Assembly: GCA_026461075.1 (NCBI GenBank)
Contig: JAPJNH010000068.1
Span: forward strand, 11,047 to 75,046
Source of the DNA: Chitinophagales bacterium
GTDB taxonomy: Bacteria > Bacteroidota > Bacteroidia > Chitinophagales > CAIODY01
Direction: 5' to 3'
Length of the DNA: 64,000 nt
In this document: positions 1,367-18,549 of the stretch, in pieces
How positions within the stretch are numbered: the stretch's first letter is position 1
How the letters are laid out: each line of letters opens with the position of its first letter
The notes under the pieces: model-generated
Told to the model about the DNA's origin: nothing
Seen by the model: only the letters and a program-made list of their open reading frames with translations
Databases searched by the model: none
Made by a program: the position numbers and the translations under genes

Positions 1367-4300
1367 ATGTCGACAAAAAAATCCAAAGAGCGTTTGAGTT
1401 TTGGTAAGATTAAAGCCTTACCGTATCCGGATTTATTAGCAATCCAATTGCAGTCGTTTAAGGACTTCTTCCAATTAGACACCACTTCAGAAAACCGTCG
1501 TGATGAAGGTTTGTACAAGGTGTTTATGGAGAATTTCCCTATTACAGACGCCCGCAACATTTTCAATTTGGAATTCTTGGATTATTTCGTGGATCCACCA
1601 CGTTACTCCATGGACGAATGCGTTGAACGCGGTTTAACGTATAGCGTACCTTTGAAAGCTAAACTTCGTTTGAGCTGTAACGACCCTGAACACATCGATT
1701 TCCAAACAATTGTTCAAGACGTTTTCTTGGGAAATATCCCTTACTTGACTCCAAAAGGAACCTTCATCATCAATGGTGCTGAGCGTGTAGTTGTATCTCA
1801 ATTACATCGTTCTCCTGGTGTGTTCTTCGGACAGTCAGTACACCCGAACGGTACAAAAATTTATTCTGCACGTATCATTCCTTTCAAAGGAGCGTGGATG
1901 GAATTCGCAACGGACATTAACAATGTAATGTCGGCCTATATCGATCGTAAGAAGAAGTTCCCTGTAACTACCCTTCTACGTGCAATGGGTTACGAATCAG
2001 ATAAGCAAATATTGGAATTGTTTGGATTAGCTGAAGAAATTAAAGCTAACAAACAAAACTTGAAAGATGCAGCTGGACGTCGTTTGGCGGCAAGCGTATT
2101 GCGTAGTTGGTTTGAAGATTTCGTTGACGAAGACACCGGAGAAGTAGTTTCTGTAGAACGTACAGAAGTTATCTTGGAACGTGATACTGTTTTGACAGAA
2201 AATGCAATCGATACTATTTTAGAATCAGGCGTCAAGTCTATCATCTTGCAAAAGGATGAAATGACGAACGACTATTCTATAATCTATAATACTTTACAAA
2301 AAGATACTTCTAATACTGAATTAGAAGCGGTTCAACACATCTATCGTCAATTGCGTGGTGCTGATGCTCCAGATGACGAAACAGCACGTGGTATCATTGA
2401 GAAATTATTCTTCAGTGACAAGCGTTATGATTTAGGTGATGTAGGTCGTTACAAAATCAATCAAAAGTTAGGTTTAGATGCTAAAAACGACAGTCGCGTA
2501 TTGTCGAAAAATGACATCATCCTAATCGTTAAATACTTAGTACAATTATCAAACGGTAAGGCAGAAATCGATGATATCGATCACTTGTCAAACCGTCGTG
2601 TACGTACCGTTGGAGAACAATTATATTCTCAATTCGGTGTTGGTTTAGCTCGTATGGCACGTACTATTCGTGAGCGTATGAACGTACGTGATAACGAGGT
2701 ATTCACTCCAGTTGATTTGATTAACGCTCGTACTTTGAGTTCTGTAATCAACTCATTCTTCGGTACCTCTCAATTGTCTCAATTCTTAGATCAAACGAAT
2801 CCATTATCTGAAATTACGCACAAACGCCGTATTTCAGCTCTAGGACCCGGCGGTTTGAGTCGTGAGCGCGCGGGCTTTGAAGTTCGTGACGTACACTACT
2901 CTCACTACGGACGTTTGTGTACCATTGAAACACCAGAAGGACCAAACATCGGTTTGATCTCTACTTTGTGTGTGCACGCAAAAATCAACGAGAAAGGATT
3001 TATCGAAACTCCTTATCGTAAGGTAGATAACAGCAAGGTTAACTTAAATGATCGTTTAGTAGAATTCCTAAGCGCTGACGATGAGGATAACAAGATTATC
3101 GCACAAAGTAATGTGGAGGTGGATGATAAAGGTTCATTCTTAGAAAATCGCGTTAAGTGTCGTCAACACGGGGAATTCCCGGTATTGGCTCCAGAAGAAA
3201 TCGAATACATGGACGTTGCACCTAACCAGATTGTGGGTGTGTCCGCTTCATTGATTCCGTTCCTTGAACATGATGATGCGAACCGTGCCTTAATGGGATC
3301 GAACATGCAACGTCAAGCTGTTCCATTAATGCGTCCGCAAGCTCCTATCGTAGGTACGGGCTTAGAAGCAAAAGTGGCTATCGACTCTCGTATGTTGATC
3401 AACGCAGAAGGAAAAGGTGTTGTTGAATATGTTGACGCAAATGAAATTCATGTTCGTTACGAACGTACGGACGAAGATCGTATCATTTCTTTCGCAGACG
3501 ATGTTACTGTATACAATTTGTTGAAATTCCGTAAAACGAACCAATCTACTTGTATCAACTTGAAGCCTATCGTTAAGAAAGGTGAAAAAGTGGTTCCTGG
3601 TCAAGTATTGTGTGAAGGTTACGCTACAGAAAACGGAGAATTGGCCTTGGGTACTAACTTGAAAGTGGCGTTCATGCCATGGAAAGGTTACAACTTCGAG
3701 GACGCGATTGTAATCAGTGAGCGTGTATTGCGTGAAGATTTGTTCACGTCTATTCACGTTGATGAATACGAATTAGAAGTTCGTGACACTAAATTAGGTG
3801 AAGAAGAATTAACGAATGATATTCCTAACGTAGCAGAAGAAGCTACTAAAGATTTGGACGAACACGGTATCATCCGCGTTGGTGCTGAAGTGAAAGAAGG
3901 TGATATCATGGTTGGTAAAATCACTCCTAAAGGTGAAACAGATCCAACTCCAGAAGAAAAGTTATTACGTGCAATCTTCGGCGATAAAGCTGGTGACGTA
4001 AAAGATGCTTCTTTGAAAGTATCTCCTTCTATCGAAGGTACCGTTATCGATACGAAATTATTCGCTCGTGCTCGTAAAGACAAAGCTTCAAAAGTTAAAG
4101 AAAAAGCAGCTCTTGAGAAATTAGAGACTGTTTACAATAAGAACTTACGTATGTTGAAGGATGTATTAATTGAAAAATTAATGCAGTTGTTGAAAGACAA
4201 AACTTCTAAAGGCGTTAAGAATCTTTATAATGAAGAATTGATTGCTAAAGGATCTAAGTTTACTGCGAAGAACCTTGATATCAATTACGATCAAATTGAT

Positions 4301-5170
4301 TCTAACAACTGGACTAACGACGATGATACAAATATCTTAGTAAAACGTTTGTTGCATAACTTCAGCATTCGTCATAACGAAGAAAGTGGTCGTTACAAGC
4401 GTGAGAAATTCAACATTACTATCGGTGATGAATTACCAGCTGGTGTTATCAAATTAGCGAAAGTATACTTAGCTAAAAAACGTAAATTACGTGTAGGTGA
4501 TAAATTAGCGGGTCGTCACGGTAACAAAGGTATCGTAGCGAAAATCGTTCGTGACGAGGATATGCCTTTCTTGGAAGATGGAACTCCAGTAGATATCGTA
4601 TTGAATCCACTAGGTGTACCTTCTCGTATGAACCTTGGTCAGATCTATGAATCAGTATTAGGTTGGGCAGGTTTAGTAAGCGGTAAGAAATTCGGTACTC
4701 CTATCTTTGATGGTGCAACTATCGAAGAAATCGAGGCAGAAATCGAAGCTTCTGGCTTACCACACCTTGGTCAAACTTACTTGTATGACGGAGAAACCGG
4801 TGAACGTTTCCACCAAAAAGGAACTGTCGGTGTTATCTACATGCTTAAGTTGAACCACATGGTTGACGATAAGATGCACGCACGTTCTATCGGACCTTAC
4901 AGTTTAATTACGCAACAGCCATTAGGTGGTAAAGCACAATTTGGTGGTCAGCGTTTTGGTGAAATGGAGGTTTGGGCATTAGAGGCTTATGGCGCATCTA
5001 ATATCTTACAGGAATTATTGACTGTTAAATCGGATGATATCATCGGCCGTGCTAAGACTTACGAAGCAATCGTTAAAGGAGACAATATCCCTAAACCAGG
5101 TATTCCTGAATCCTTCAATGTATTGATGCATGAATTAAGAGGTCTTGCTCTTGATTTGAAATTTGAATAA
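1367..5170 (+). CDS. rpoB: DNA-directed RNA polymerase subunit beta
   Basis: 1267-aa ORF with canonical RpoB blocks ([58 protein letters not shown]). The length and C-terminus are typical of Bacteroidota RpoB. Confidence 0.97.
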
Positions 5171-6613: not shown

Positions 6614-9139
6614 ATGGTGTACACGATTAACGAAATTTTTAGCATTACCCGTGGTACCCTCCTGAAAGTAAGTCATACAGGTGGGATTAGCAAGCTTTTA
6701 CTCGATAGCAGAAAACTAAGTAATGCCTACGAAACTTTATTTATCGCCATCAAAGGAAAACGAAATGATGGCCATTCCTATATAGAAGAACTCTATAAAA
6801 AAGGGGTTCGTAATTTCATAGTAGAACACTCCCCTAACCTTATTTTATTTCCTGACGCGAACTTCATTCAAGTAAAGGATAGTATTGTGGCAATGCAACA
6901 AATTGCTGCATTCCATAGACAACGTTTCAAATATCCTGTGGTAGGCATCACTGGCAGTAATGGTAAAACCATTGTAAAAGAGTGGCTATATCAATTACTG
7001 AATACCACTTGCCATGTGGTCAAAAGTCCAAAAAGTTATAATAGTCAAATCGGTGTTCCATTAAGTGTTTGGAACATGAGCGAACAACACGAAATTGGTG
7101 TTTTTGAGGCCGGCATTTCGCAACCGAATGAAATGGATAAATTGGAGCGTATCCTTAAACCTAATGTAGGGATATTCACGAATATTGGTCAAGCCCACGA
7201 CAGTGGCTTCTTGAATATACGCCAAAAGATCAATGAAAAATTGCAACTATTCGCCTTTTCAGAATATGTGGTGTATTGCCATGATCATTCAGAATTGAAT
7301 AATGCAATTCTCAATTTCAAAGCAAAGATTGTAAACGATGATTCTGATAATCGCTTTAAGCTATTCTCTTGGTCGATGCAAGAAAGCTCTGAAGCGAATC
7401 TTAAAATCACCAAGGTAATTCGTAATAACGGATTCACACAAATAGAAGGTCATTATCAAGGAACTAGTTCTTTTATAGAAATTCCGTTTACTGATCAGGC
7501 ATCGATTGAAAATGCGATTAATTGCTGGGCAGCGCTTATTGTCCTGAATAAGGTCAATGCGGCTGTGATTCAACAATTCAAGCATTTGTCTGCCGTGAGT
7601 ATGCGTTTGGAATTAAAAGAAGGGAATAACAATTGTAGCTTAATTAATGATAGTTATAGCAATGATATTTCATCTTTAATCATCGCGATTGAGTTTTTAC
7701 AGCAACAGCAATTAAAGCCTAAAAAGACTTTAATTTTAAGTGATATCCTGGAAAGCGGAAAGAATGAATTTGAATTGTATGAAGAAGTAGTTGCCATCAT
7801 TCAGCGATTTAAAATTGCTAAGTTTATTGGCATTGGTAAATCCTTAAAAAGACAGCAAAAGCAATTTGAACCTTTGGAAAATATCGAGCTGTTCTTCTAT
7901 GAAGACACCGCGAGTTTCCTATCGACTCATCCATTTGACACTTTTCAGGACGAGGCTATATTATTAAAAGGCGCACGTGTTTATGCCTTTGAAAGAATCA
8001 GTGCACTATTTGAAAAGAAGGCACATGAAACAGTGCTAGAAGTCAATTTGAGCGCCATTAATCACAACCTAGCGATCTACCGTAAGCAATTACCAACTAA
8101 AACGAAAGTGATGGCCATGGTAAAAGCCTTTAGTTATGGTTCGGGCAGCTATGAAATCGCGAAGCAACTTGAAAATAATCAAATCGATTACCTTGCGGTA
8201 GCTTATGCCGATGAAGGCGTAGAACTCCGTCAGGCAGGTATCACTACCCCAATTATGGTGATGTGCCCAGAGCGTAATAGCTTTGATACCATCATTAAAA
8301 ACAATTTAGAACCCGAAATATACTCTATTGAAATTCTACAAGAATTGTTGAATCAAATCGAGTTGTATTATACTGAATCCGTTCATTTACCAATACGAAT
8401 ACATCTTGAATTAGAAACAGGGATGAATCGTTTAGGCTTTGATGTTCACCAACTTGAAGCATTAGCAAATATATTACAGACACATGCTTCGCAAATAAAA
8501 GTTGCCTCTATTTTTTCTCATTTGGCGGCCTCTGAATCAGCTGATTTTGATGCTTTCACAAAAGAGCAAATCGCACGCTTTGAAAGCATGAGTAGCTTCA
8601 TCCTGCAACATTGCCCTTATCCGGTTTTACGTCATATTCTGAATAGTGGCGGAATTGTTCGTCATCCTGAGGCTGTATATGATATGGTAAGATTGGGAAT
8701 TGGTTTATATGGTTCGGATAGTTCAAATAAAATTCAAAATGAATTGGAGGTGGTGAGCACATTAAAGTCGACCATTCTTCAAATAAAGGAAATTAGTCCG
8801 AACGATACCGTTGGGTATAGTAGAAAGGGACAGCTTAAAACAGGAAGTAAAATTGCTACGATTGGATTAGGCTATGCAGATGGTTTGCATCGCAAATTGG
8901 GTAACGGCGTTGGCAAAATGGAATTACATGGCCAATTAGTAGCCATTGTTGGATCCATTTGCATGGATATGTGCATGCTGGACATTAGCAACATTCCGAA
9001 TGCTAAGGTGGGTGACGAAGTGGTAGTTTTCGGTAAAAACCCAAGCATTCAACAACTCGCTGAATGGGAAGGCACTATTCCGTATGAAATACTGACTAAT
9101 ATTTCTAAACGTGTTAAGCGCGTTTATTTTGAAGAATAA
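6614..9139 (+). CDS. murF-alr: Bifunctional UDP-MurNAc-tripeptide:D-Ala-D-Ala ligase (MurF) / alanine racemase
   Basis: 841-aa ORF. The N-terminal half has the Mur ligase P-loop (GITGSNGKT). The C-terminal half has the alanine racemase PLP-lysine region (MAMVKAFSYGSG) and the terminal ICMDMCMLD block. Confidence 0.9.
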   Translation: MVYTINEIFSITRGTLLKVSHTGGISKLLLDSRKLSNAYETLFIAIKGKRNDGHSYIEELYKKGVRNFIVEHSPNLILFPDANFIQVKDSIVAMQQIAAFHRQRFKYPVVGITGSNGKTIVKEWLYQLLNTTCHVVKSPKSYNSQIGVPLSVWNMSEQHEIGVFEAGISQPNEMDKLERILKPNVGIFTNIGQAHDSGFLNIRQKINEKLQLFAFSEYVVYCHDHSELNNAILNFKAKIVNDDSDNRFKLFSWSMQESSEANLKITKVIRNNGFTQIEGHYQGTSSFIEIPFTDQASIENAINCWAALIVLNKVNAAVIQQFKHLSAVSMRLELKEGNNNCSLINDSYSNDISSLIIAIEFLQQQQLKPKKTLILSDILESGKNEFELYEEVVAIIQRFKIAKFIGIGKSLKRQQKQFEPLENIELFFYEDTASFLSTHPFDTFQDEAILLKGARVYAFERISALFEKKAHETVLEVNLSAINHNLAIYRKQLPTKTKVMAMVKAFSYGSGSYEIAKQLENNQIDYLAVAYADEGVELRQAGITTPIMVMCPERNSFDTIIKNNLEPEIYSIEILQELLNQIELYYTESVHLPIRIHLELETGMNRLGFDVHQLEALANILQTHASQIKVASIFSHLAASESADFDAFTKEQIARFESMSSFILQHCPYPVLRHILNSGGIVRHPEAVYDMVRLGIGLYGSDSSNKIQNELEVVSTLKSTILQIKEISPNDTVGYSRKGQLKTGSKIATIGLGYADGLHRKLGNGVGKMELHGQLVAIVGSICMDMCMLDISNIPNAKVGDEVVVFGKNPSIQQLAEWEGTIPYEILTNISKRVKRVYFEE

Positions 9140-9156: not shown

Positions 9157-9194
9157 TAAAAAAAGCCCTCCTTGATATTTCAAAGAGGGCTTTT
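9157..9194. terminator. Bidirectional intrinsic terminator between convergent murF-alr and hppA
   Basis: GCCCTCCTT pairs with AAAGAGGGC to form a hairpin with an A-run on one side and a T-run on the other. Confidence 0.75.
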
Positions 9195-9211: not shown

Positions 9212-11668
9212 TTACTTAGAGCGTAAAGTATCTGTTTTCGTAGTGATCTTTCCAGATTTATCTTTCATGATTACCTGACGAATTTCGATTCTTTCCATGC
9301 CAGCACCTTTTGGTAGACGACCGGGTTTGCAATATTTCTCATCATCAGCTTCGGCACCTTTCCCTTCTTTGCAACATTCTGACATTTCCATTTCCTTACA
9401 TTCACCACCATGACCTTTCATCATCATTTCGTGGCAATGTTCCATCATCATAGCGCAAGAAGCACTGTCTTTGCATTCCATCATCATCATTTTGCACTCC
9501 ATTTGTTTTCCTTCTCCAGGACAATTTGTCGTATGGTGAATTGAAGCTAATGTTGGCGCGATAACTAATGAAACAATCGACATTAATTTGATCAAGATAT
9601 TCATAGACGGTCCAGATGTATCTTTAAATGGATCACCAACTGTATCACCAGTTACTGAAGCCTTATGTGGTTCGGACTTTTTATAGAACATTTCACCATT
9701 GATCTCAACACCTTTCTCGAAAGATTTTTTAGCGTTATCCCAAGCACCACCGGCGTTGTTTTGGAACATACCAATTAATACACCACTCACGGTAGCACCT
9801 GCTAACATACCTCCTAACACTTCTGGTCCGAAAATGAAACCAACGATAATTGGAGCTAAGATAGCCAAAGCACCTGGCAACATCATTTTCTTAATTGAAG
9901 CAGCAGTAGAAATTTGAACACATTTATCGTATTCAGGTTTCGCTTTACCTTCCAAGATTCCTGGAATTTCACGGAACTGACGACGAACCTCTTCCACCAT
10001 TGCCATTGCCGCTTGTCCAACGGCAGTGATTGCTAAAGAGGAGAAGATGAAAGGAATCATTCCTCCGACAAATAAACCTGCTAATACATCTGCTTTATAA
10101 ATATCAATTCCATCAATTTTAGCTATACCAACGAATGCTGCAAAAAGAGCTAAAGCTGTTAATGCTGCAGAAGCAATCGCAAAACCTTTACCCGTTGCTG
10201 CTGTAGTGTTACCTACTGCATCCAAGATATCGGTACGTTCACGCACTTCTTTAGGCAATTCAGACATTTCCGCAATACCACCTGCGTTATCCGCAATTGG
10301 TCCGAAAGCATCAATAGCCAACTGCATAGCAGTGGTAGCCATCATACCTGCAGCTGCGATAGCTACACCATATAAACCTGCGAATTTGTAAGAACCCATG
10401 ATACCAGCAGCCAAAACGATAATAGGCAAGAAAGTAGATTCCATACCAATTGCTAAACCACCGATGATATTAGTCGCATGACCTGTTGAAGATTGACGAA
10501 CGATGTTTAATACAGGGCGTTTACCCATTGCTGTATAATATTCAGTAATGATACTCATCAAGGTACCTACCGCAAGACCAACGCAAATAGCTCCGAATAC
10601 ACCCATATTAGTAAAGGTAGTACCGCGTAATTCCATTTGTTCAGGCAATATAAATTTAACCATGAAGAAAGAAGCAACCGCTGTTAAAACGATACTTCCC
10701 CAGTTACCCATATTAAGTGCCTTTTGAACCTTTTCTGCTGTTCCTTTACCATCATCAGAAATACGAACGAAGAAAGTACCGATAATTGAGAAGATAATTC
10801 CCATACCTGCAATAAGCATTGGGAAAAGTATTGGCGCCAAGCCATCAAATTTATCCGCTCCGATAGTTGTTGTTTCACGTCCTAAAACCATTGTAGCTAA
10901 AACGGTAGCAACATAAGAACCGAACAAATCGGCACCCATACCAGCTACGTCACCTACGTTGTCACCCACGTTATCTGCAATGGTTGCAGGGTTACGAGGA
11001 TCATCTTCAGGAATACCTGCTTCTACTTTACCAACAAGATCAGCGCCTACGTCAGCCGCTTTCGTATAAATACCACCACCCACACGTGCAAATAATGCAA
11101 TGGATTCAGCACCTAATGAAAAACCAGTTAATACTTCAATAGTACGCTCCATTTCTACAGAAGAAACGCCGGTAGCACCGAAATACGCTTTCAATACTAA
11201 GAATAATCCACCTAATCCCAAAACCGCTAAACCGGCAACACCCATTCCCATTACAGAACCGCCAGTGAAAGACACTTTCAAGGCTTGCGCCAAGCTAGTA
11301 CGAGCCGCTTGTGCAGTACGAACATTCGATTTTGTAGCGATGCGCATACCGATAAAACCTGCAAGTGCAGAGAAAACGGCACCAATCACAAAGGCAACTG
11401 CAATCGACCAGTGACTGTTAGCGTTACGCGTGCCCATAAAGCCTAATGCCAAAGCTGCGATAACAACGAAATAACTTAAAATCTTGTATTCAGCTTTCAA
11501 GAAAGCCATAGCTCCTTCAGCAATATACGTGCTGATTTCTTTCATACGAGCATCCCCTGCGTCTTGACGACTTACCCAGCTGCTTTTTAAAGCAGTGAAA
11601 ATCAAGGCGATAACGCCAAAAAGAGGAACTAAAACTAACAATTGCGCTGATGTAATCTGTAGTAACAT
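9212..11668 (-). CDS. hppA: K+-dependent-type membrane-bound pyrophosphatase (H+ or Na+ translocating) with an atypical C-terminal extension
   Basis: 818-aa polytopic ORF with M-PPase motifs ([44 protein letters not shown]). GNTTAA, rather than GNTTKA, marks the K+-dependent class. The last 108 aa are non-canonical (see findings). Confidence 0.93.
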
Positions 11669-11777: not shown

Positions 11778-12722
11778 TTATGGCAGGCGAAAACGTTTAA
11801 CAACTTGAGCACCAATCATTCCGTAACCATTCGTAACGTTGGTGGTTATTTGTGAAGGCTCGGCAAAAGGATTGCCATTCGTATCCCAATAACTGTCTAC
11901 AGATTGTAAATATTGATAGTAGTCCTTCGTAACACTTAAAACCTCCAGGTAATAAATACCAGCAACAAAACTCCCCCAACCACCCTTGTAAATGGCAAAA
12001 TGTATTTCGCCTTCATAGGTGCCATTGTTAAAAATTGCATCATTCAAGTACAACTTATTGGATGATTCAGTGGCTCCTTGTAGCCCATTCAAATCTTGTA
12101 GATTTAAATTATTCGTTCCAATACTTGCATCCAAATAACCCATGAAAGAAGAATCAAATTGACTCACACGAATCAAATAATAATTCTTGTTATTTTGATC
12201 AAGATCCACAATTTTGAATTTTATACTCTTTCCATCCGTTGTCTGAGAACCACCTCCAAAACCTCCACCTACAGACAACAAAACATCATCCACACATAAG
12301 GTATCAACTTTAGGAATAATAGGTACGCTTACTTCAGCAACTACATCCGCAAAGCCGGATTTTACAGCTTTGACAGTATACGTGTGTCCTGGTAAAAAAG
12401 ATAAATTAGAGTCCACATAATTTCCTTCAATCGGTGTCGACCAAGGATTAGAATTAAGTGCAGGCACATAATGCAAGGTGCTTAGCAAGTTTCCATTTTC
12501 ATAGACCTTAACGCTACCGTCATTAACATAAGCCGGCAAATTACCCGACTTCGCAGAAATCGAACTAGATAAATTTAATACCAAAACACTATCCAGCTGT
12601 ATGAGTCCATTCATCACGAGTCTTGGTGTCGTTTCCGGAATAGGTAAATCAATATCCTTTGTGCAACTATTAAGTGAAATTGCGAAACAAAAAAGCGATA
12701 AAACAAGTATTGCGTTACGCAT
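11778..12722 (-). CDS. DUF4249-like lipoprotein (partner of the upstream TonB-dependent receptor)
   Basis: 314-aa ORF with a lipoprotein signal (LSLFCFAISLNSC). The overall pattern matches my recollection of the Bacteroidota DUF4249 family. It begins 4 nt after the receptor stop. Confidence 0.6.
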   Translation of the reverse strand: MRNAILVLSLFCFAISLNSCTKDIDLPIPETTPRLVMNGLIQLDSVLVLNLSSSISAKSGNLPAYVNDGSVKVYENGNLLSTLHYVPALNSNPWSTPIEGNYVDSNLSFLPGHTYTVKAVKSGFADVVAEVSVPIIPKVDTLCVDDVLLSVGGGFGGGSQTTDGKSIKFKIVDLDQNNKNYYLIRVSQFDSSFMGYLDASIGTNNLNLQDLNGLQGATESSNKLYLNDAIFNNGTYEGEIHFAIYKGGWGSFVAGIYYLEVLSVTKDYYQYLQSVDSYWDTNGNPFAEPSQITTNVTNGYGMIGAQVVKRFRLP

Positions 12723-12726
12723 AGTC

Positions 12727-15105
12727 TTAGAATTTAAAATTTAAGGTGAAAGCAGGAAGAATTGGGAAAATAGTCACTTTACGCAGAACAGGCTTTCCAT
12801 AATCATCCACTGTTTTATATACAAAAAACGCGTTCAAACGATTGTAAGCATTATATACAGAAACATTATAGGTCAATTCAAACTTCTTATAGTACTTATG
12901 AAAATTCGCTCCGATATCTAAGCGATGATAAGAAGGCATGCGAAATTCATTTACCCCAGTAGCATTATCAATAACCATATTATACCCGGATTGCATTCCA
13001 TAAGGAGAATTCGCCAAACCATAATAACGGTCTGTAGCCAATGTGAGCGCATTACCTGTACTATAGACCCATGTAGCACTGACATCAATTTTCTTAGAAA
13101 ACTCATGCGATACTACTACCCCAATATCATGTCTGCGATCGTATTTGTAAAAATACTTAATACCGTTGTTTTTATCGTTGAATTGGCGATAGGCCCAAGA
13201 TAAAGTATACCCTATCCAACCGGTTGTTTTACCGAATTTTCTTTGAAGGAATAATTCACTACCGTAGGACCACGCCTTGCCGTTCGTGACTTTATTTTGC
13301 CAATCTTGACCGCCTAATAAAAAGCTTGCTCCGTTTTTATATTCTATTACATTCGACATCGATTTATAATAGCCTTCAATTGAAAATTCGTAATTGTCCT
13401 TGAAAGTATATGCAAATCCTGCGGCATATTGAATGGCTTGTTGCGGTGCAACCTTCTTCGTGGCCGGCACCCAGAAATCCGTTGGCAAGCCTATTCCACT
13501 ATTTGTTAACAGATGCAAATACTGCGTCATTTTCGAAGCCGAAACTTTAAAGCTCAAATCAGGATTGATTAAATAGCGTGCTGAAATACGCGGTTGTAAA
13601 GAGCGATAGGTTGTATCTGTTAATTTGAAGACTGACCCATGCAAACCGAAGTTAACCTTTAAACGTTTACTAAGGTTCCAGTCATCTTCTACATATAAGA
13701 ACCCTTCATGTGCGTAGATATTTTGACTACCAAACGTTGTATCCATAGATGTACCACTAACGTTCAACTTAAATGCGGTAACACCAGGCTTAAAGGTATG
13801 ATAGATATAGTTTGATCCAAAACGGATATGGTGTGCTGCATTCGGTAAATAATCAAAATCAAGTTTTAGACCATCGTCAAAAATACCTGAGAGATAGCCG
13901 ATTCCAAATGCTTGCGTTTGTGTGGAGCCGGTTGTAAGATCACGCGTAGTAGAGGTATTTTCGGCTCCGATATTGAAATTATATCTCGAATAAGTAGCTG
14001 TAAGATTCATGAACAATTTAGGATTTACTACGTGATTCCAACGAAGTGCAGTCGTAATATTCCCCCAGTTCAATGTAGAACTTAATTTATCCGTAAAAAC
14101 AGTTTGATTGTCTGAAAAACTCGTGCTAGCCTTTAATCCGAAGACGTCCTTTCCTAAATAACTACTCAAAAACAACCGATCTTTATCCGAAAACTTGTGA
14201 TTAATTTTTGCATTCAAATCATAAAAGTAATAGCCTAAAGAGCCTTGTCTTTGCGAGAGCAAATAAGATATCGGGCGCATGAACAAATCTGCATAAGTAC
14301 GTCGACCTGAAATAAGAAAAGTGGTATTCTGGTCTTTAATAGGCCCTTCAATTGTAAGTCGAGAAGAGATAAGTCCTACCCCACCTTCAACTTTCATTTT
14401 TTTATTATTTCCTTCTTTCATGTTGATGTCAATTACAGATGACAAACGTCCTCCGTAACGTGCAGGAAAGCCTCCTTTTACGAGAGAGACGTTATTAATC
14501 GCGTCTCCGTTAAATACAGAAAAGAAGCCAAACAAATGGTTTACATTATAAACTTGCACACCGTCCAAAAGGATTAGATTTTGATCGGGTCCACCACCTC
14601 TCACGTAAATCCCACTTGCCCCTTCCGTTCCTTTCGCCACCCCTGGAAGTAATTGAATCACCTTCAAAACATCGACCTCACCGAATAGCGCAGGTATTTT
14701 CTTGATTTGCGCGACAGGGATTTGAATAGTCGACATTTCTGATTTTTCCTGGATACGATTTCCGGCACTACGGTCTGCATTAATTTGCACTTCTTTGCTT
14801 TGAATTAAAGCGAGTTCGACATTGAAATTATGGGCTTTTCGACCAATGAAAGTTTTCTTGACCGACAGACAACCCACATAACTAAACGTTAATTGCACGG
14901 TATCTTTATCGAAGCTGATGCTATAAAAACCGAATTCATTAGTAACGGTTCCAACTGCTTGATTATAGACGAAAGCTCCGAACAATTTCTCTCCAGAGGT
15001 GCTGTCGGTAACGAAGCCGGAGATGGTCATTTTCTGAGCCGATACCGGTTTGGTGGATAAGAGAGCACAAAATAATAAGGCAAAAACAATGTAACTGAAG
15101 CGCAT
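12727..15105 (-). CDS. TonB-dependent receptor with an N-terminal carboxypeptidase-regulatory-like domain
   Basis: The signal peptide MRFSYIVFALLFCALLSTKPVSAQ is followed by a CarboxypepD_reg-like segment (ISGFVTDSTSGEKLFGAFVY), a plug, and a long beta-barrel ending in an aromatic residue (NFKF). The TTG start at 15144 in the ORF track is probably an artefact. Confidence 0.85.
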   Translation of the reverse strand: MRFSYIVFALLFCALLSTKPVSAQKMTISGFVTDSTSGEKLFGAFVYNQAVGTVTNEFGFYSISFDKDTVQLTFSYVGCLSVKKTFIGRKAHNFNVELALIQSKEVQINADRSAGNRIQEKSEMSTIQIPVAQIKKIPALFGEVDVLKVIQLLPGVAKGTEGASGIYVRGGGPDQNLILLDGVQVYNVNHLFGFFSVFNGDAINNVSLVKGGFPARYGGRLSSVIDINMKEGNNKKMKVEGGVGLISSRLTIEGPIKDQNTTFLISGRRTYADLFMRPISYLLSQRQGSLGYYFYDLNAKINHKFSDKDRLFLSSYLGKDVFGLKASTSFSDNQTVFTDKLSSTLNWGNITTALRWNHVVNPKLFMNLTATYSRYNFNIGAENTSTTRDLTTGSTQTQAFGIGYLSGIFDDGLKLDFDYLPNAAHHIRFGSNYIYHTFKPGVTAFKLNVSGTSMDTTFGSQNIYAHEGFLYVEDDWNLSKRLKVNFGLHGSVFKLTDTTYRSLQPRISARYLINPDLSFKVSASKMTQYLHLLTNSGIGLPTDFWVPATKKVAPQQAIQYAAGFAYTFKDNYEFSIEGYYKSMSNVIEYKNGASFLLGGQDWQNKVTNGKAWSYGSELFLQRKFGKTTGWIGYTLSWAYRQFNDKNNGIKYFYKYDRRHDIGVVVSHEFSKKIDVSATWVYSTGNALTLATDRYYGLANSPYGMQSGYNMVIDNATGVNEFRMPSYHRLDIGANFHKYYKKFELTYNVSVYNAYNRLNAFFVYKTVDDYGKPVLRKVTIFPILPAFTLNFKF

Positions 15106-15251
15106 AGCGGGATAGAGTTTAAAAGGGAAATTATCAAAAGACAAATTTCTGAATACAAATAACGCTCACGCAACCCTAATTATTATGAGAACCAATATAT
15201 TTCTTTAAAAAGTTTTCAAATCTCAAAAAAACAACGATATTAGCAGGTCTG

Positions 15252-16419: not shown

Positions 16420-16857
16420 ATGGCTAAAGAAATTGCAACGTATGTAAAACTGCAGTGCAAAGGCGGACAGGCTAACCCTGCACCTCCTATTGGTCCAGCT
16501 TTGGGTTCTAAGGGTATTAATATCATGGAATTCTGTAAGCAGTTCAATGCACGCACGCAGGATAAAATGGGGAAAGTATTGCCTGTATTAATTACAGTTT
16601 ATACAGATAAGTCATTTGACTTCATCATCAAAACTCCTCCAGCAGCAGTACAAGTTATGGAAGCTGCAAAATTGCAAAGTGGTTCTAAAGAGCCAAACCG
16701 TAACAAGGTTGGTAAAATCACTTGGGAACAAGTTAGAGCAATCGCAGAAGATAAAATGCCTGATCTTAACTGTTCTAAAGTAGAATCAGCAATGACTATG
16801 GTTGCCGGTACTGCACGCAGTATGGGTGTAACTGTAGAAGGTAATCGTCCTTTCTAA
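16420..16857 (+). CDS. rplK: 50S ribosomal protein L11
   Basis: 145 aa with the PPIGPALG motif and full-length L11 similarity. Confidence 0.97.
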
Positions 16858-16878
16858 TTTTAAATAACAACATTAACC

Positions 16879-17580
16879 ATGGCATTAACGAAAAAAAGAA
16901 AAAGCGTAGCTAACTTGGTTAACAAAGATGCTGTTTATTCAATTAAACAAGCTACTGAGTTAATTAAGAAGCTAAACACCACCAAGTTTGACGCGTCTGT
17001 TGACGTTCATATTCGCTTGGGAGTTGATCCAAAGAAAGCCGACCAGGCTGTTCGCGGTGTTGTTACCCTTCCTCACGGAACAGGTAAAGACAAGCGAGTT
17101 TTGGTATTATGTACACCTGATAAAGAAGCAGAAGCAACTGCAGCAGGTGCTGACCACGTAGGTTTAGATGATTATATCAGCAAAATCGAAAAAGGTTGGG
17201 TAGATATCGACGTTATCATTGCAACTCCGGCAGTAATGCCTAAGTTAGGTAAATTAGGTAAAGTATTAGGTCCTCGTAACTTAATGCCAAACCCTAAGAC
17301 CGGCACTGTAACTACCGATGTAGCTTCAGCTGTTAAAGAAGTGAAATTAGGTAAGATTGCTTTCAAATTAGATAAGCAAGCTATCATCCACACTTCAATC
17401 GGTCGTGTATCATTCTCTCCAGAGAAGTTACAAGATAACGCGATGGAATTAATCAATACAATCGTTAAAATGAAGCCTCAAAGTGCTAAAGGTACTTACC
17501 TTAAGAGCATCTTTATCGCTACAACGATGAGTCCATCCGTACAAATCGATACGAAATTACTTACTTCATCTGTAAACTAA
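16879..17580 (+). CDS. rplA: 50S ribosomal protein L1
   Basis: 233 aa with typical L1 sequence ([28 protein letters not shown]). Confidence 0.97.
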
Positions 17581-17589
17581 TCAACGGTC

Positions 17590-18090
17590 ATGAATAAACA
17601 AGAAAAAACGCAATTGATCGAAGAGTTGAAAGCAAAATTTGCTGAAGCAACCTTCTTCTACATTGCCGATACAACAAGTTTGACCGTAGAACAGGTCAAC
17701 AAACTCCGCAAAATGTGTTTCAAGCAAGGCGTTGAAATGAAGGTAGCTAAAAACTCCTTGATTCAAAAAGCCCTTGAAGCTAACAATCAAGCAACTCCGG
17801 AAATTATCACCGCTTTAAAAGGTCAGTCGTCAATTATGTTCTCTGAACAAAGTTCGACTCCTGCAAAAATCATCAAGGAATTCCGTGGTGCTGCAGGTGA
17901 ATTACCTCTATTGAAGTTGGCGAACATCGAATCTGAGATCTATATCGGAAACGACCAATTGGCTGCATTAGCTGCCTTGAAGTCGCGCAACGAACTCATT
18001 GCAGATGTTATCCTACTCTTGCAATCACCTGCGAAAGCTATCGCTGGTGCGCTTGAGACGCTTGCTAAAAATAAAGCGGAACAAGAATAA
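17590..18090 (+). CDS. rplJ: 50S ribosomal protein L10
   Basis: 166 aa, located between rplA and rplL, with L10-like sequence. Confidence 0.93.
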   Translation: MNKQEKTQLIEELKAKFAEATFFYIADTTSLTVEQVNKLRKMCFKQGVEMKVAKNSLIQKALEANNQATPEIITALKGQSSIMFSEQSSTPAKIIKEFRGAAGELPLLKLANIESEIYIGNDQLAALAALKSRNELIADVILLLQSPAKAIAGALETLAKNKAEQE

Positions 18091-18180
18091 GGCTTCCAAG
18101 CAACTCAATACAAAATCTAAATTTTTAAACCCGTCTACTTTCTTCGTTACATTAGAAATAGGCACAACTTAATTAAAACA

Positions 18181-18549
18181 ATGGCTGACTTAAAAGCTTT
18201 TGCTGAACAACTAGTTAATCTCACTGTTAAAGAAGTGAACGAATTAGCTGAAATTTTGAAAAATGATTACGGTATCGAGCCTGCAGTTGCTGCTGTAGCA
18301 GTTGCTGGAGGTGGTGGTGCTGCTGCTGCTGCTGAAAAAACATCATTCGACGTTATCTTGAAGTCTGGTGGTGCTAACAAATTGGCTGTAGTTAAAATCG
18401 TTAAAGATTTGACTGGTCTTGGTTTGAAAGAAGCTAAAGACTTAGTAGATGGCGCTCCAAAACCTGTTAAAGAAGGTGTTGATAAAGCTACCGCTGAAGA
18501 TTTGAAAGCTAAATTGACTGAAGCTGGTGCTGACGTTGAAATCGCTTAA
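18181..18549 (+). CDS. rplL: 50S ribosomal protein L7/L12
   Basis: 122 aa with an Ala/Gly hinge and the C-terminal domain sequence [16 protein letters not shown]. Confidence 0.97.

Follow-up and report, generated by a model that had tools for sequence, protein, structure and literature searches.

A methionine- and cysteine-rich C-terminal tail on a membrane pyrophosphatase of the sodium-translocating type from a freshwater Chitinophagales bacterium

A pyrophosphatase gene with a sulfur-rich tail

A gene for a membrane pyrophosphatase (M-PPase) with an unusual C-terminal extension is found in a freshwater Chitinophagales bacterium (GenBank assembly GCA_026461075.1, contig JAPJNH010000068.1). 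The whole stretch analysed, here called the window, comprises 64,000 nucleotides (positions 11,047 to 75,046 of the contig), and all coordinates given below are positions within it. The encoded protein is a 100% match to MCX8479107.1 from a Chitinophagales metagenome-assembled genome (MAG). Its last 108 residues form a tail rich in Met, Cys and His that is a genuine and selected part of the protein, is well supported as periplasmic, and may, on a tentative reading, bind soft metals. The gene, the parts of the tail and the downstream terminator are as follows; helices and strands are those of an AlphaFold2 (AF2) model.

9212-11668, minus strand: complete M-PPase gene of 818 amino acids, a single listed open reading frame (ORF) with its stop codon at 9212-9214
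9560-11614, minus strand: M-PPase core (residues 19-703), a full-length match to the Pfam H_PPase family
9536-9610, minus strand: predicted transmembrane helix 16 (TM16; AF2 helix 687-711, hydropathy segment 686-711)
9215-9538, minus strand: C-terminal tail (residues 711-818, 108 amino acids), the translation of the ORF past the core end at residue 710
9320-9526, minus strand: Met/Cys/His-rich segment NCPG...YCKPG (residues 715-783), with 9 Cys, 13 Met and 3 His
9434-9496, minus strand: twin motif C-KMMMME-C / KDSAS / C-AMMMEH-C (Cx6C-loop5-Cx6C; residues 725-745), inside two predicted helices
9371-9376, minus strand: vicinal Cys-Cys doublet in SECCKEG (residues 765-766), shared with related tails
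9305-9331, minus strand: linker motif CKPGRLPKG (residues 780-788), invariant in eight variants and reading CKANRLPGDKG in the relative P0002
9218-9292, minus strand: predicted terminal β-hairpin RIEIRQVIM / KDKSGK / ITTKTDTL (residues 793-817), from low-confidence AF2 strands
9158-9190, minus strand: intrinsic terminator with an 11-bp GC-rich stem (one mismatch), a 4-nt loop and U7 on the minus strand

The core matches PF03030 (H_PPase) in Pfam with 908.7 bits against a cutoff of 29.7, covering profile positions 1-645 of 645, and the best NCBIfam model is the sodium-translocating NF001955 (1266.6 bits against a cutoff of 1059, residues 9-721). The acidic PPi/Mg motifs DVGADLVGK and DNVGDNVGD and the stretch SMNILIK are invariant in all 61 aligned M-PPase sequences. 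The AF2 model, made from a 61-sequence alignment, contains about 16 long helices and is acceptable in the core, with a predicted template modelling score of 0.72. In the K+-dependent subfamily of M-PPases, position 12.46 of the GNTTAA(x)GKG motif is occupied by Ala and not by Lys. The pump has Ala at 12.46, in a motif stretch that begins at residue 486, and relatives carry the Joint Genome Institute label “K(+)-stimulated pyrophosphate-energized sodium pump”. By these sequence markers, the protein is classified as a Na+-translocating M-PPase of the K+-dependent type. TMH16 of M-PPases bears the gate residues D/N16.46 and K16.50 (PMC5150537), and from their spacing we infer that N690 and K694 in SMNILIK fit these two positions.

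The sequence-only reading of this DNA had described where the core ends, the 108 extra residues, the sequence of the tail and the residue counts in its 69-residue centre, all of which were exact when checked again. The whole tail contains 9 Cys, 15 Met and 5 His, and its acidic and basic residues are equal in number. With the 42 long ORFs of the window as background (0.9% Cys, 2.4% Met, 1.9% His), the binomial tail of this excess is ~1e-8 for Cys, again ~1e-8 for Met, and 4e-15 when Cys, Met and His are counted together. The best 69-residue stretch of the tail holds 26 such residues, compared with at most 12 in any other ORF of the window; the core of the pump itself is only 0.3% Cys and 0.4% His. 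That the tail carries no additional transmembrane segment was likewise borne out, since no hydrophobic segment was found in it (maximum Kyte-Doolittle 19-residue mean 0.27). Tandem Repeats Finder detected no DNA repeat in the Met/Cys-rich coding part; its one row, a weak 14-bp unit in 1.9 copies, lies at 9246-9272, close to the 3' end. Opposite the Met runs, at 9410-9544 on the plus strand, there is a 44-residue His-rich ORF with an HHHH run that is not a gene candidate; it exists because ATG is the reverse complement of CAT.

The AF2 model places two helices (residues 719-731 and 738-751), a coil (752-792) and a β-hairpin (793-802/808-817) in the tail, with predicted local distance difference test (pLDDT) values of 28-50. 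Successive Cys residues are separated by 9, 7, 6, 7, 12, 8, 1 and 14 positions. In the aligned region of P0002, the twin motif takes the form Cx3C-loop5-Cx3C, and a 3-residue Met indel in each arm separates it from the present tail. Matched arm lengths are also seen in P0003 (Cx6C/Cx6C) and P0107, but the symmetry is not strict, and P0122 and P0128 have Cx5C/Cx6C. The Cys-Cys doublet is found in the context [G/K]xxCC[S/K/A] in 44 of 47 non-redundant Cys-type tails of related M-PPases, the present one included. MxxH and HxxM spacings occur within an 11-residue motif of the tail.

The terminator lies about 20 nt past the stop codon of the gene. A 70-nt stretch that contains it has a folding energy of -31.3 kcal/mol (z = -7.4 versus shuffles), and the hairpin has an A-run and, on the plus strand, a T-rich TTTTCT at its flanks. 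The hairpin at 9158-9190 is probably a bidirectional terminator that also serves the convergent murF-alr gene. A consensus terminator scan reported no terminator and probably missed this one owing to the mismatch in its stem. The murF-alr gene (6614-9139, plus strand) is a single 841-residue ORF, assigned by reading its translation, with a MurF-type ligase at the N-terminus and an alanine racemase at the C-terminus; it runs convergently to the M-PPase gene and probably shares its terminator.

Selection on the tail and its counterparts in relatives

The 90%-identity cluster around this protein holds at least eight distinct natural variants of the tail from independent assemblies, all with a common frame and stop codon, and the ORF is free of indels in two further strains with 94-99% nucleotide identity. 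Compared with L081 (99% amino-acid identity), 58 codon changes in the core are synonymous and 2 are non-synonymous, against 5 of each in the tail. Compared with L084, a 94%-identical syntenic contig, the tail has 18 synonymous and 4 non-synonymous changes, and every Cys is retained. The ratio of non-synonymous to synonymous substitution rates (dN/dS; Nei-Gojobori, three pairwise comparisons) is 0.004-0.01 in the core and 0.04-0.2 in the tail. The tail is clearly under purifying selection, though it is less constrained than the core of the pump.

Whether the composition of the tail would hold up among orthologues was a question attached to the sequence-only reading. In the close variants it does: all nine Cys are invariant in the eight variants, two of them with synonymous changes in their codons, while 52 of the 79 positions that are not Cys, Met or His are invariant. 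The variants also keep CKPGRLPKG and a terminal segment, IEIR.VI.KDK.GK.TT..DTLR, whose hairpin sequence can be aligned in P0002 and P0003 as well. The most variable part of the tail lies between the Cys-Cys doublet and the last Cys. The same reading had worried that the extension might be a frameshift artefact. Many relatives do stop about 20-45 residues past the core, yet the closest ones retain the tail, and because they do, the tail is not a frameshift artefact but a genuine, selected extension.

The wider family was sampled from the 120 best database relatives (75-99% identity) and 66 ORFs from 80 genome loci, which gave 187 pumps, mostly from Chitinophagaceae, Ferruginibacter, Sediminibacterium, Chryseobacterium and allied MAGs. 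The cores are about 85% identical over their last 400 residues, and all sequence past LVIAPTLA diverges. What follows the core falls into several types, given here as raw counts with no correction for redundancy or phylogeny.

Short tail: 73/187
Cys-rich tail (at least 5 Cys): 38/187
OmpA-like domain (Pfam E 4e-22): 32/187
OmpA-like domain downstream of a Cys cluster: 4/187
Module of 95-125 residues with weak BON-like similarity: about 21/187
Cys-rich and Met-rich tail (at least 5 Cys and at least 8 Met), the type of the present tail: 12/187
Other tails: 7/187

Tails rich in both Cys and Met (Cys+Met tails) are spread over four separate core clusters. In a shuffle test of alignability to the present tail, P0002 and P0003 gave z-scores of 7.8 and 6.5, and P0019 and P0107 gave weak scores of 2.9 and 3.3; the tails of P0035 and L066 were not alignable to it by composition-preserving shuffles. 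Because Cys+Met tails include such unalignable ones, the comparison indicates that Met enrichment on top of Cys arose more than once and that the type originated in at least three lineages. On this evidence, selection acts on the composition of the tails and not on their sequence. Judged by these alignments, the present tail is one variant in a hypervariable set of periplasmic C-terminal modules carried by Chitinophagales M-PPases. The question thereby shifts from an odd fusion to a swappable periplasmic accessory region.

A peptidoglycan-binding domain of the OmpA-like family PF00691 is found in 36 of the 187 pumps in total, such as P0006, P0012, P0024, P0043, P0053, P0074 and P0114, and L002, L006, L011, L014 and L022. 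The E-value of 4e-22 was measured on P0006, which served as the control relative; the present tail had no Pfam match, and an OmpA-like domain was rejected for it. An inner-membrane pump that is tied to the cell wall through such a domain recalls the MotB/PomB stators.

Carriers of the BON-like module include L010, L012, L015, L016, L021, L026, L048, L055, L074 and others, as well as P0091 and P0106, and the module follows the patterns ..EIKV.. and AL..DGL....N..V....GKL.ING..Q......KY...L. Four of 15 members match Pfam BON (best E 5.5e-4), which gives no confident family, and PDB profile matches are weak (HMA domain, E 0.04; the BON-LysM K+-binding protein Kbp, E 0.13). A single-sequence AF2 model of the module reached a pLDDT of 63, with no significant Foldseek match in the PDB. 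The last 35 residues of the present tail (MERIEIRQV...) were considered as a homologue of the first strand of this module (MEIKV...), but a profile from 25 tails scored no better than shuffles and the candidate was dropped.

Several of the Cys-rich tails (P0004, P0011, P0012, P0013, P0017, P0021, P0032, P0083 and P0100) contain a repeated C-x3-C-x4-C-x3-CC unit with a “KPCC” end, for example ECGNACDKETCDKPCC, which in P0013 is duplicated to give 19 Cys. Upstream of the unit is a widely conserved M-x2-C-x4-C-x4-C-x3-M (CKKAGCTEAEC). The tails of the Cys-rich relatives had no Pfam or PDB match.

An M-PPase is built of 16 transmembrane helices; its hydrolytic centre is cytoplasmic, and its exit channel opens on the periplasmic or lumenal side (PMC5150537). 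The C-terminal loop is described as lumenal, at the ion exit, and belongs to the gate region (PMC5601048). In the AF2 model, TM16 ends where the tail starts. The sequence-only reading had put the tail in the periplasm, and this is supported by inference from the published topology and from relatives with 80-85%-identical cores that carry OmpA-like domains at the same junction. A periplasmic location, directly past the outer end of TM16, is well supported by these comparisons because the OmpA-like and weakly BON-like modules at the junction make sense only there.

The neighbouring genes are housekeeping genes. On one side, the M-PPase gene is flanked by rpoB, rpoZ, bamD and the murF-alr fusion, and on the other by genes for a DUF4249 protein, a TonB-dependent receptor and an HU-like protein, and by rplKAJL. 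The neighbours at the P0002 and P0003 loci differ from these, and there is no conserved partner. Directly upstream on the same strand (11778-15144, minus strand) are the TonB-dependent receptor-like gene (CarboxypepD_reg and Plug domains) and the DUF4249 gene, separated from the M-PPase gene by a 110-nt gap with a weak promoter-like site. The gene rpoB (1367-5170, plus strand) is isolated between ruvB (minus strand) and rpoZ/bamD (minus strand). Eleven kb from it, at 16420-18549 on the plus strand, lie rplK-rplA-rplJ and an unscanned 122-residue ORF at the place of rplL, followed by genes for a short-chain dehydrogenase/reductase and a photolyase-related protein and by gyrB. No ORF of the size of rpoC (about 1400 residues) was seen in the 64-kb window, and the usual rplKAJL-rpoBC arrangement appears to be broken here.

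Readings of the tail

Tentatively, and with somewhat less than even confidence, the tail is read as a periplasmic segment that binds soft metals, with Cu(I) the most likely. In this model, the tail would hang from the outer end of the gate helix TM16, largely disordered on its own, and would comprise three elements: a helical hairpin in which each arm has Cys at i and i+7 flanking Met, the Cys-Cys doublet, and the small terminal β-hairpin. The thiol, thioether and imidazole side chains would bind a thiophilic metal, Cu(I) being the likeliest, with Ag(I), Cd(II), Hg(II) or Zn(II) as other possibilities. Borne on an inner-membrane protein of high abundance, such a tail would serve as a local metal sponge. 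Alternatively, it might fold on the metal beside the exit channel and so brake or clamp pumping in response to metal.

The soft-metal reading is put forward because it covers more of the observed features than any other: thiol, thioether and imidazole groups are enriched jointly, and this enrichment recurs in tails that cannot be aligned with one another. It also covers the sulfur faces on helices, the conserved Cys-Cys doublet and an indifference to Cys parity. Across the Cys+Met tails, Cys and Met are over-represented at i+3 and i+4 (z 2.8 and 2.6) and under-represented at i+2 and i+6, a helix-like spacing that would line up sulfur atoms on one face of a predicted helix. The number of Cys per tail is odd in 24 and even in 23 of the 47 Cys-type tails, so that there is no preference for even numbers. 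The motif evidence on metal binding is mixed: Met runs, MxxH/HxxM spacings and the Cys-Cys doublet fit, while CxC and CxxC are missing. The functional reading draws on composition alone.

A number of observations weigh against the soft-metal reading. The present tail contains no CxC or CxxC, and across the Cys+Met tail family CxC is seen 0 times against 11.8 expected and CxxC once against 11.6. Periplasmic Cu(I) sites usually lack Cys, since thiols there are prone to oxidation. Only 9 of the 15 Met are invariant in the eight-variant cluster, and one run is either MMMM or MMM. The AF2 confidence in the tail is too low for structural claims. No match to the tail was found in Pfam (E up to 1), NCBIfam or the PDB sequences. 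A phmmer search of 1.84 billion cluster representatives returned only P0121, a spurious hit, although the HMMER bias filters may hide low-complexity relatives. Finally, no metal-resistance genes adjoin the gene here or at the P0002 and P0003 loci, and no metal-homeostasis domain was found among the larger ORFs of the window that were scanned.

Several more specific identities were considered and rejected. P0121, a 677-residue protein with tandem repeats, owes its score to 8 weak repeat matches added together and was not accepted as a homologue. A metallothionein-like thiolate cluster needs dense CxC/CxxC, and the tail has neither. The HMA domain (PF00403, with its GMxCxxC loop) was dismissed, as the tail has no Pfam match and no CxxC. 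A c-type haem site was rejected too, with CxxCH occurring zero times in the present tail and in all 47 Cys-type tails, and motifs likewise ruled out an Fe-S reading. A word-index search with the tail alone found nothing and is uninformative, as it missed even the 99%-identical P0001, presumably through its handling of low-complexity sequence.

The main rival, unlikely on balance but to be taken seriously, is that the tail is a metal-free redox or disulfide module that stabilises the pump or tunes it to the redox state. In one form, the disulfides C725-C745 and C732-C738 would staple the hairpin and the ninth Cys would join the protomers of the dimer; the title of a reference in PMC5150537 puts the C-termini of the two protomers near each other. 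In another form, Cys and Met would take up periplasmic oxidants, either sacrificially or as sensors, and would be restored by Msr or thiol-disulfide systems. The periplasm is an oxidising compartment, and the Cys are the most conserved feature of the tail, ahead of its non-Cys/Met/His positions. Avoidance of CxC/CxxC suits structural disulfides better than thiolate clusters. The twin Cx6C-loop-Cx6C, with arms matched in P0002 and P0003, and a twin Cx3C-x4-Cx3C-C unit in ten Cys-rich relatives also speak for pairing. However, P0122 and P0128 have unequal arms, no bias towards even Cys numbers is seen, and the present tail itself has nine invariant Cys. Stapling would also leave the repeated co-enrichment of Met and His across lineages unexplained, and AF2 offers no confident fold for such a module.

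A more specific proposal, and an improbable one, is that Cu(I) or another soft metal, or oxidation, folds or cross-links the sulfur-rich hairpins of both protomers at the mouth of the exit channel, just below TM16, and so throttles or locks Na+ export driven by PPi. In the broader form of this regulator reading, the site after TM16 in Chitinophagales M-PPases would be a plug-in point for periplasmic sensor or anchor modules that can replace one another, whether OmpA-like, BON-like, Cys-rich or Cys/Met-rich.

It is also doubtful that the tail is a tolerated low-complexity spacer, in which the Met/Cys richness is a by-product of indels and slippage and there is no ligand. The tail is indeed the most variable part of the protein, with at least five tail types on 75-85%-identical cores and short tails in 73 of the 187 pumps; the length of the Met run is polymorphic, pLDDT in the tail is below 50, and dN/dS is 10 to 30 times the core value. 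Yet a dN/dS of 0.04-0.2 is purifying selection, and together with the invariance of the Cys it makes a spacer without function unlikely. The comparison with L084, with its excess of synonymous changes, points the same way. Slippage would have no DNA tandem repeat in the Met/Cys-rich part to drive it, Cys is too rare in the ORFs of the window for chance to supply so many (p ~1e-8), and a like composition appears in lineages whose tails are unalignable.

Finally, an assembly or sequencing artefact, in which a frameshift or missed stop had fused unrelated sequence to the core, has practically no probability left even with the early stops of many relatives in its favour, and is refuted by the identical protein MCX8479107.1 in an NCBI MAG, the common frame and stop of at least eight variants from independent assemblies, codon-level purifying selection and a terminator directly after the stop codon.

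Comparison with known systems

To our knowledge, M-PPases are regarded as among the simplest primary ion pumps, made of one polypeptide without regulatory or accessory domains. In a limited literature search, the OmpA-like domain was the only accessory domain found on them, and no description was found of Cys-rich or Cys/Met-rich tails or of modular variability of the tail. Within that search, a sulfur-rich, selected periplasmic appendage on a canonical pump is previously undescribed. Roughly 60% of the 187 sampled pumps bear an interchangeable periplasmic module right after the gate helix, and about 29% have Cys-rich tails, under purifying selection. If these tails bind metal or sense redox, sodium and pyrophosphate bioenergetics would be tied to the chemistry of the cell envelope, and if the regulator or plug-in reading is true, M-PPases could no longer be seen as pumps of a single domain without regulation. 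If the tails do nothing, they would show how freely low-complexity, sulfur-rich sequence accumulates on an essential-type membrane protein.

The closest published case is the C-terminal OmpA-like domain of M-PPases from Paucibacter and other Burkholderiales, described in a 2024 review as having a “role to be elucidated” (PMC11210485). Like the present pump, these proteins have an extra module on the periplasmic side, added to a canonical C-terminus. Unlike theirs, the present tail is sulfur-rich and of low complexity and has no recognised fold, and the review makes no mention of Cys-rich or Met-rich tails on M-PPases.

SilE/PcoE and the disordered Met/His-rich region of PcoB are periplasmic “molecular sponges” for Ag(I) and Cu(I) (PMC5008109, PMC12509749). 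The tail, like them, would be periplasmic and is predicted to be disordered; it too has many Met and His residues, some at MxxH or HxxM spacing, and it would be expected to gain helix on binding metal. It differs in its nine conserved Cys, in being joined to an ion pump and in lying outside a metal-resistance operon, and no homology to SilE/PcoE was found in Pfam, NCBIfam, phmmer or PDB searches of the tail. Clusters of Met also recruit Cu(I) in the Ctr1 ectodomain, through its Mets motifs, and in CueO, CopA and PcoA, through Met-rich inserts (PMC12731240, PMC12041951). The tail has Met runs and clusters too (MMMM, MMM and MEM), and they would likewise face away from the cytoplasm. However, copper is the substrate of those proteins, whereas here the tail belongs to a Na+/pyrophosphate pump and has unusually high Cys.

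For the combination of paired Cys and a separate doublet, a parallel is Cox17, a CHCH protein of the mitochondrial intermembrane space with twin CxnC helices and a separate Cys-Cys site, KPCCxC, that binds Cu(I). The tail would share with it two short predicted helices with matched Cys pairs, a separate Cys-Cys doublet and a location in a periplasm-equivalent compartment, and the KPCC of Cox17 recurs as “KPCC” in the Cys-rich M-PPase relatives. In contrast to CHCH proteins, the tail has Cx6C rather than Cx9C/Cx3C, the symmetry is broken in some variants, and there is neither homology nor a confident model to connect the two. Metal-binding tails are also known from SlyD and Hpn, where they store or buffer metal and are cytoplasmic, dominated by His and oriented towards Ni and Zn. 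Like them, the tail described here is a low-complexity C-terminal extension with Cys-Cys doublets in a Gly/Glu/Lys context, appended to a protein with another job. Unlike them, it is placed in the periplasm and is dominated by Met and Cys.

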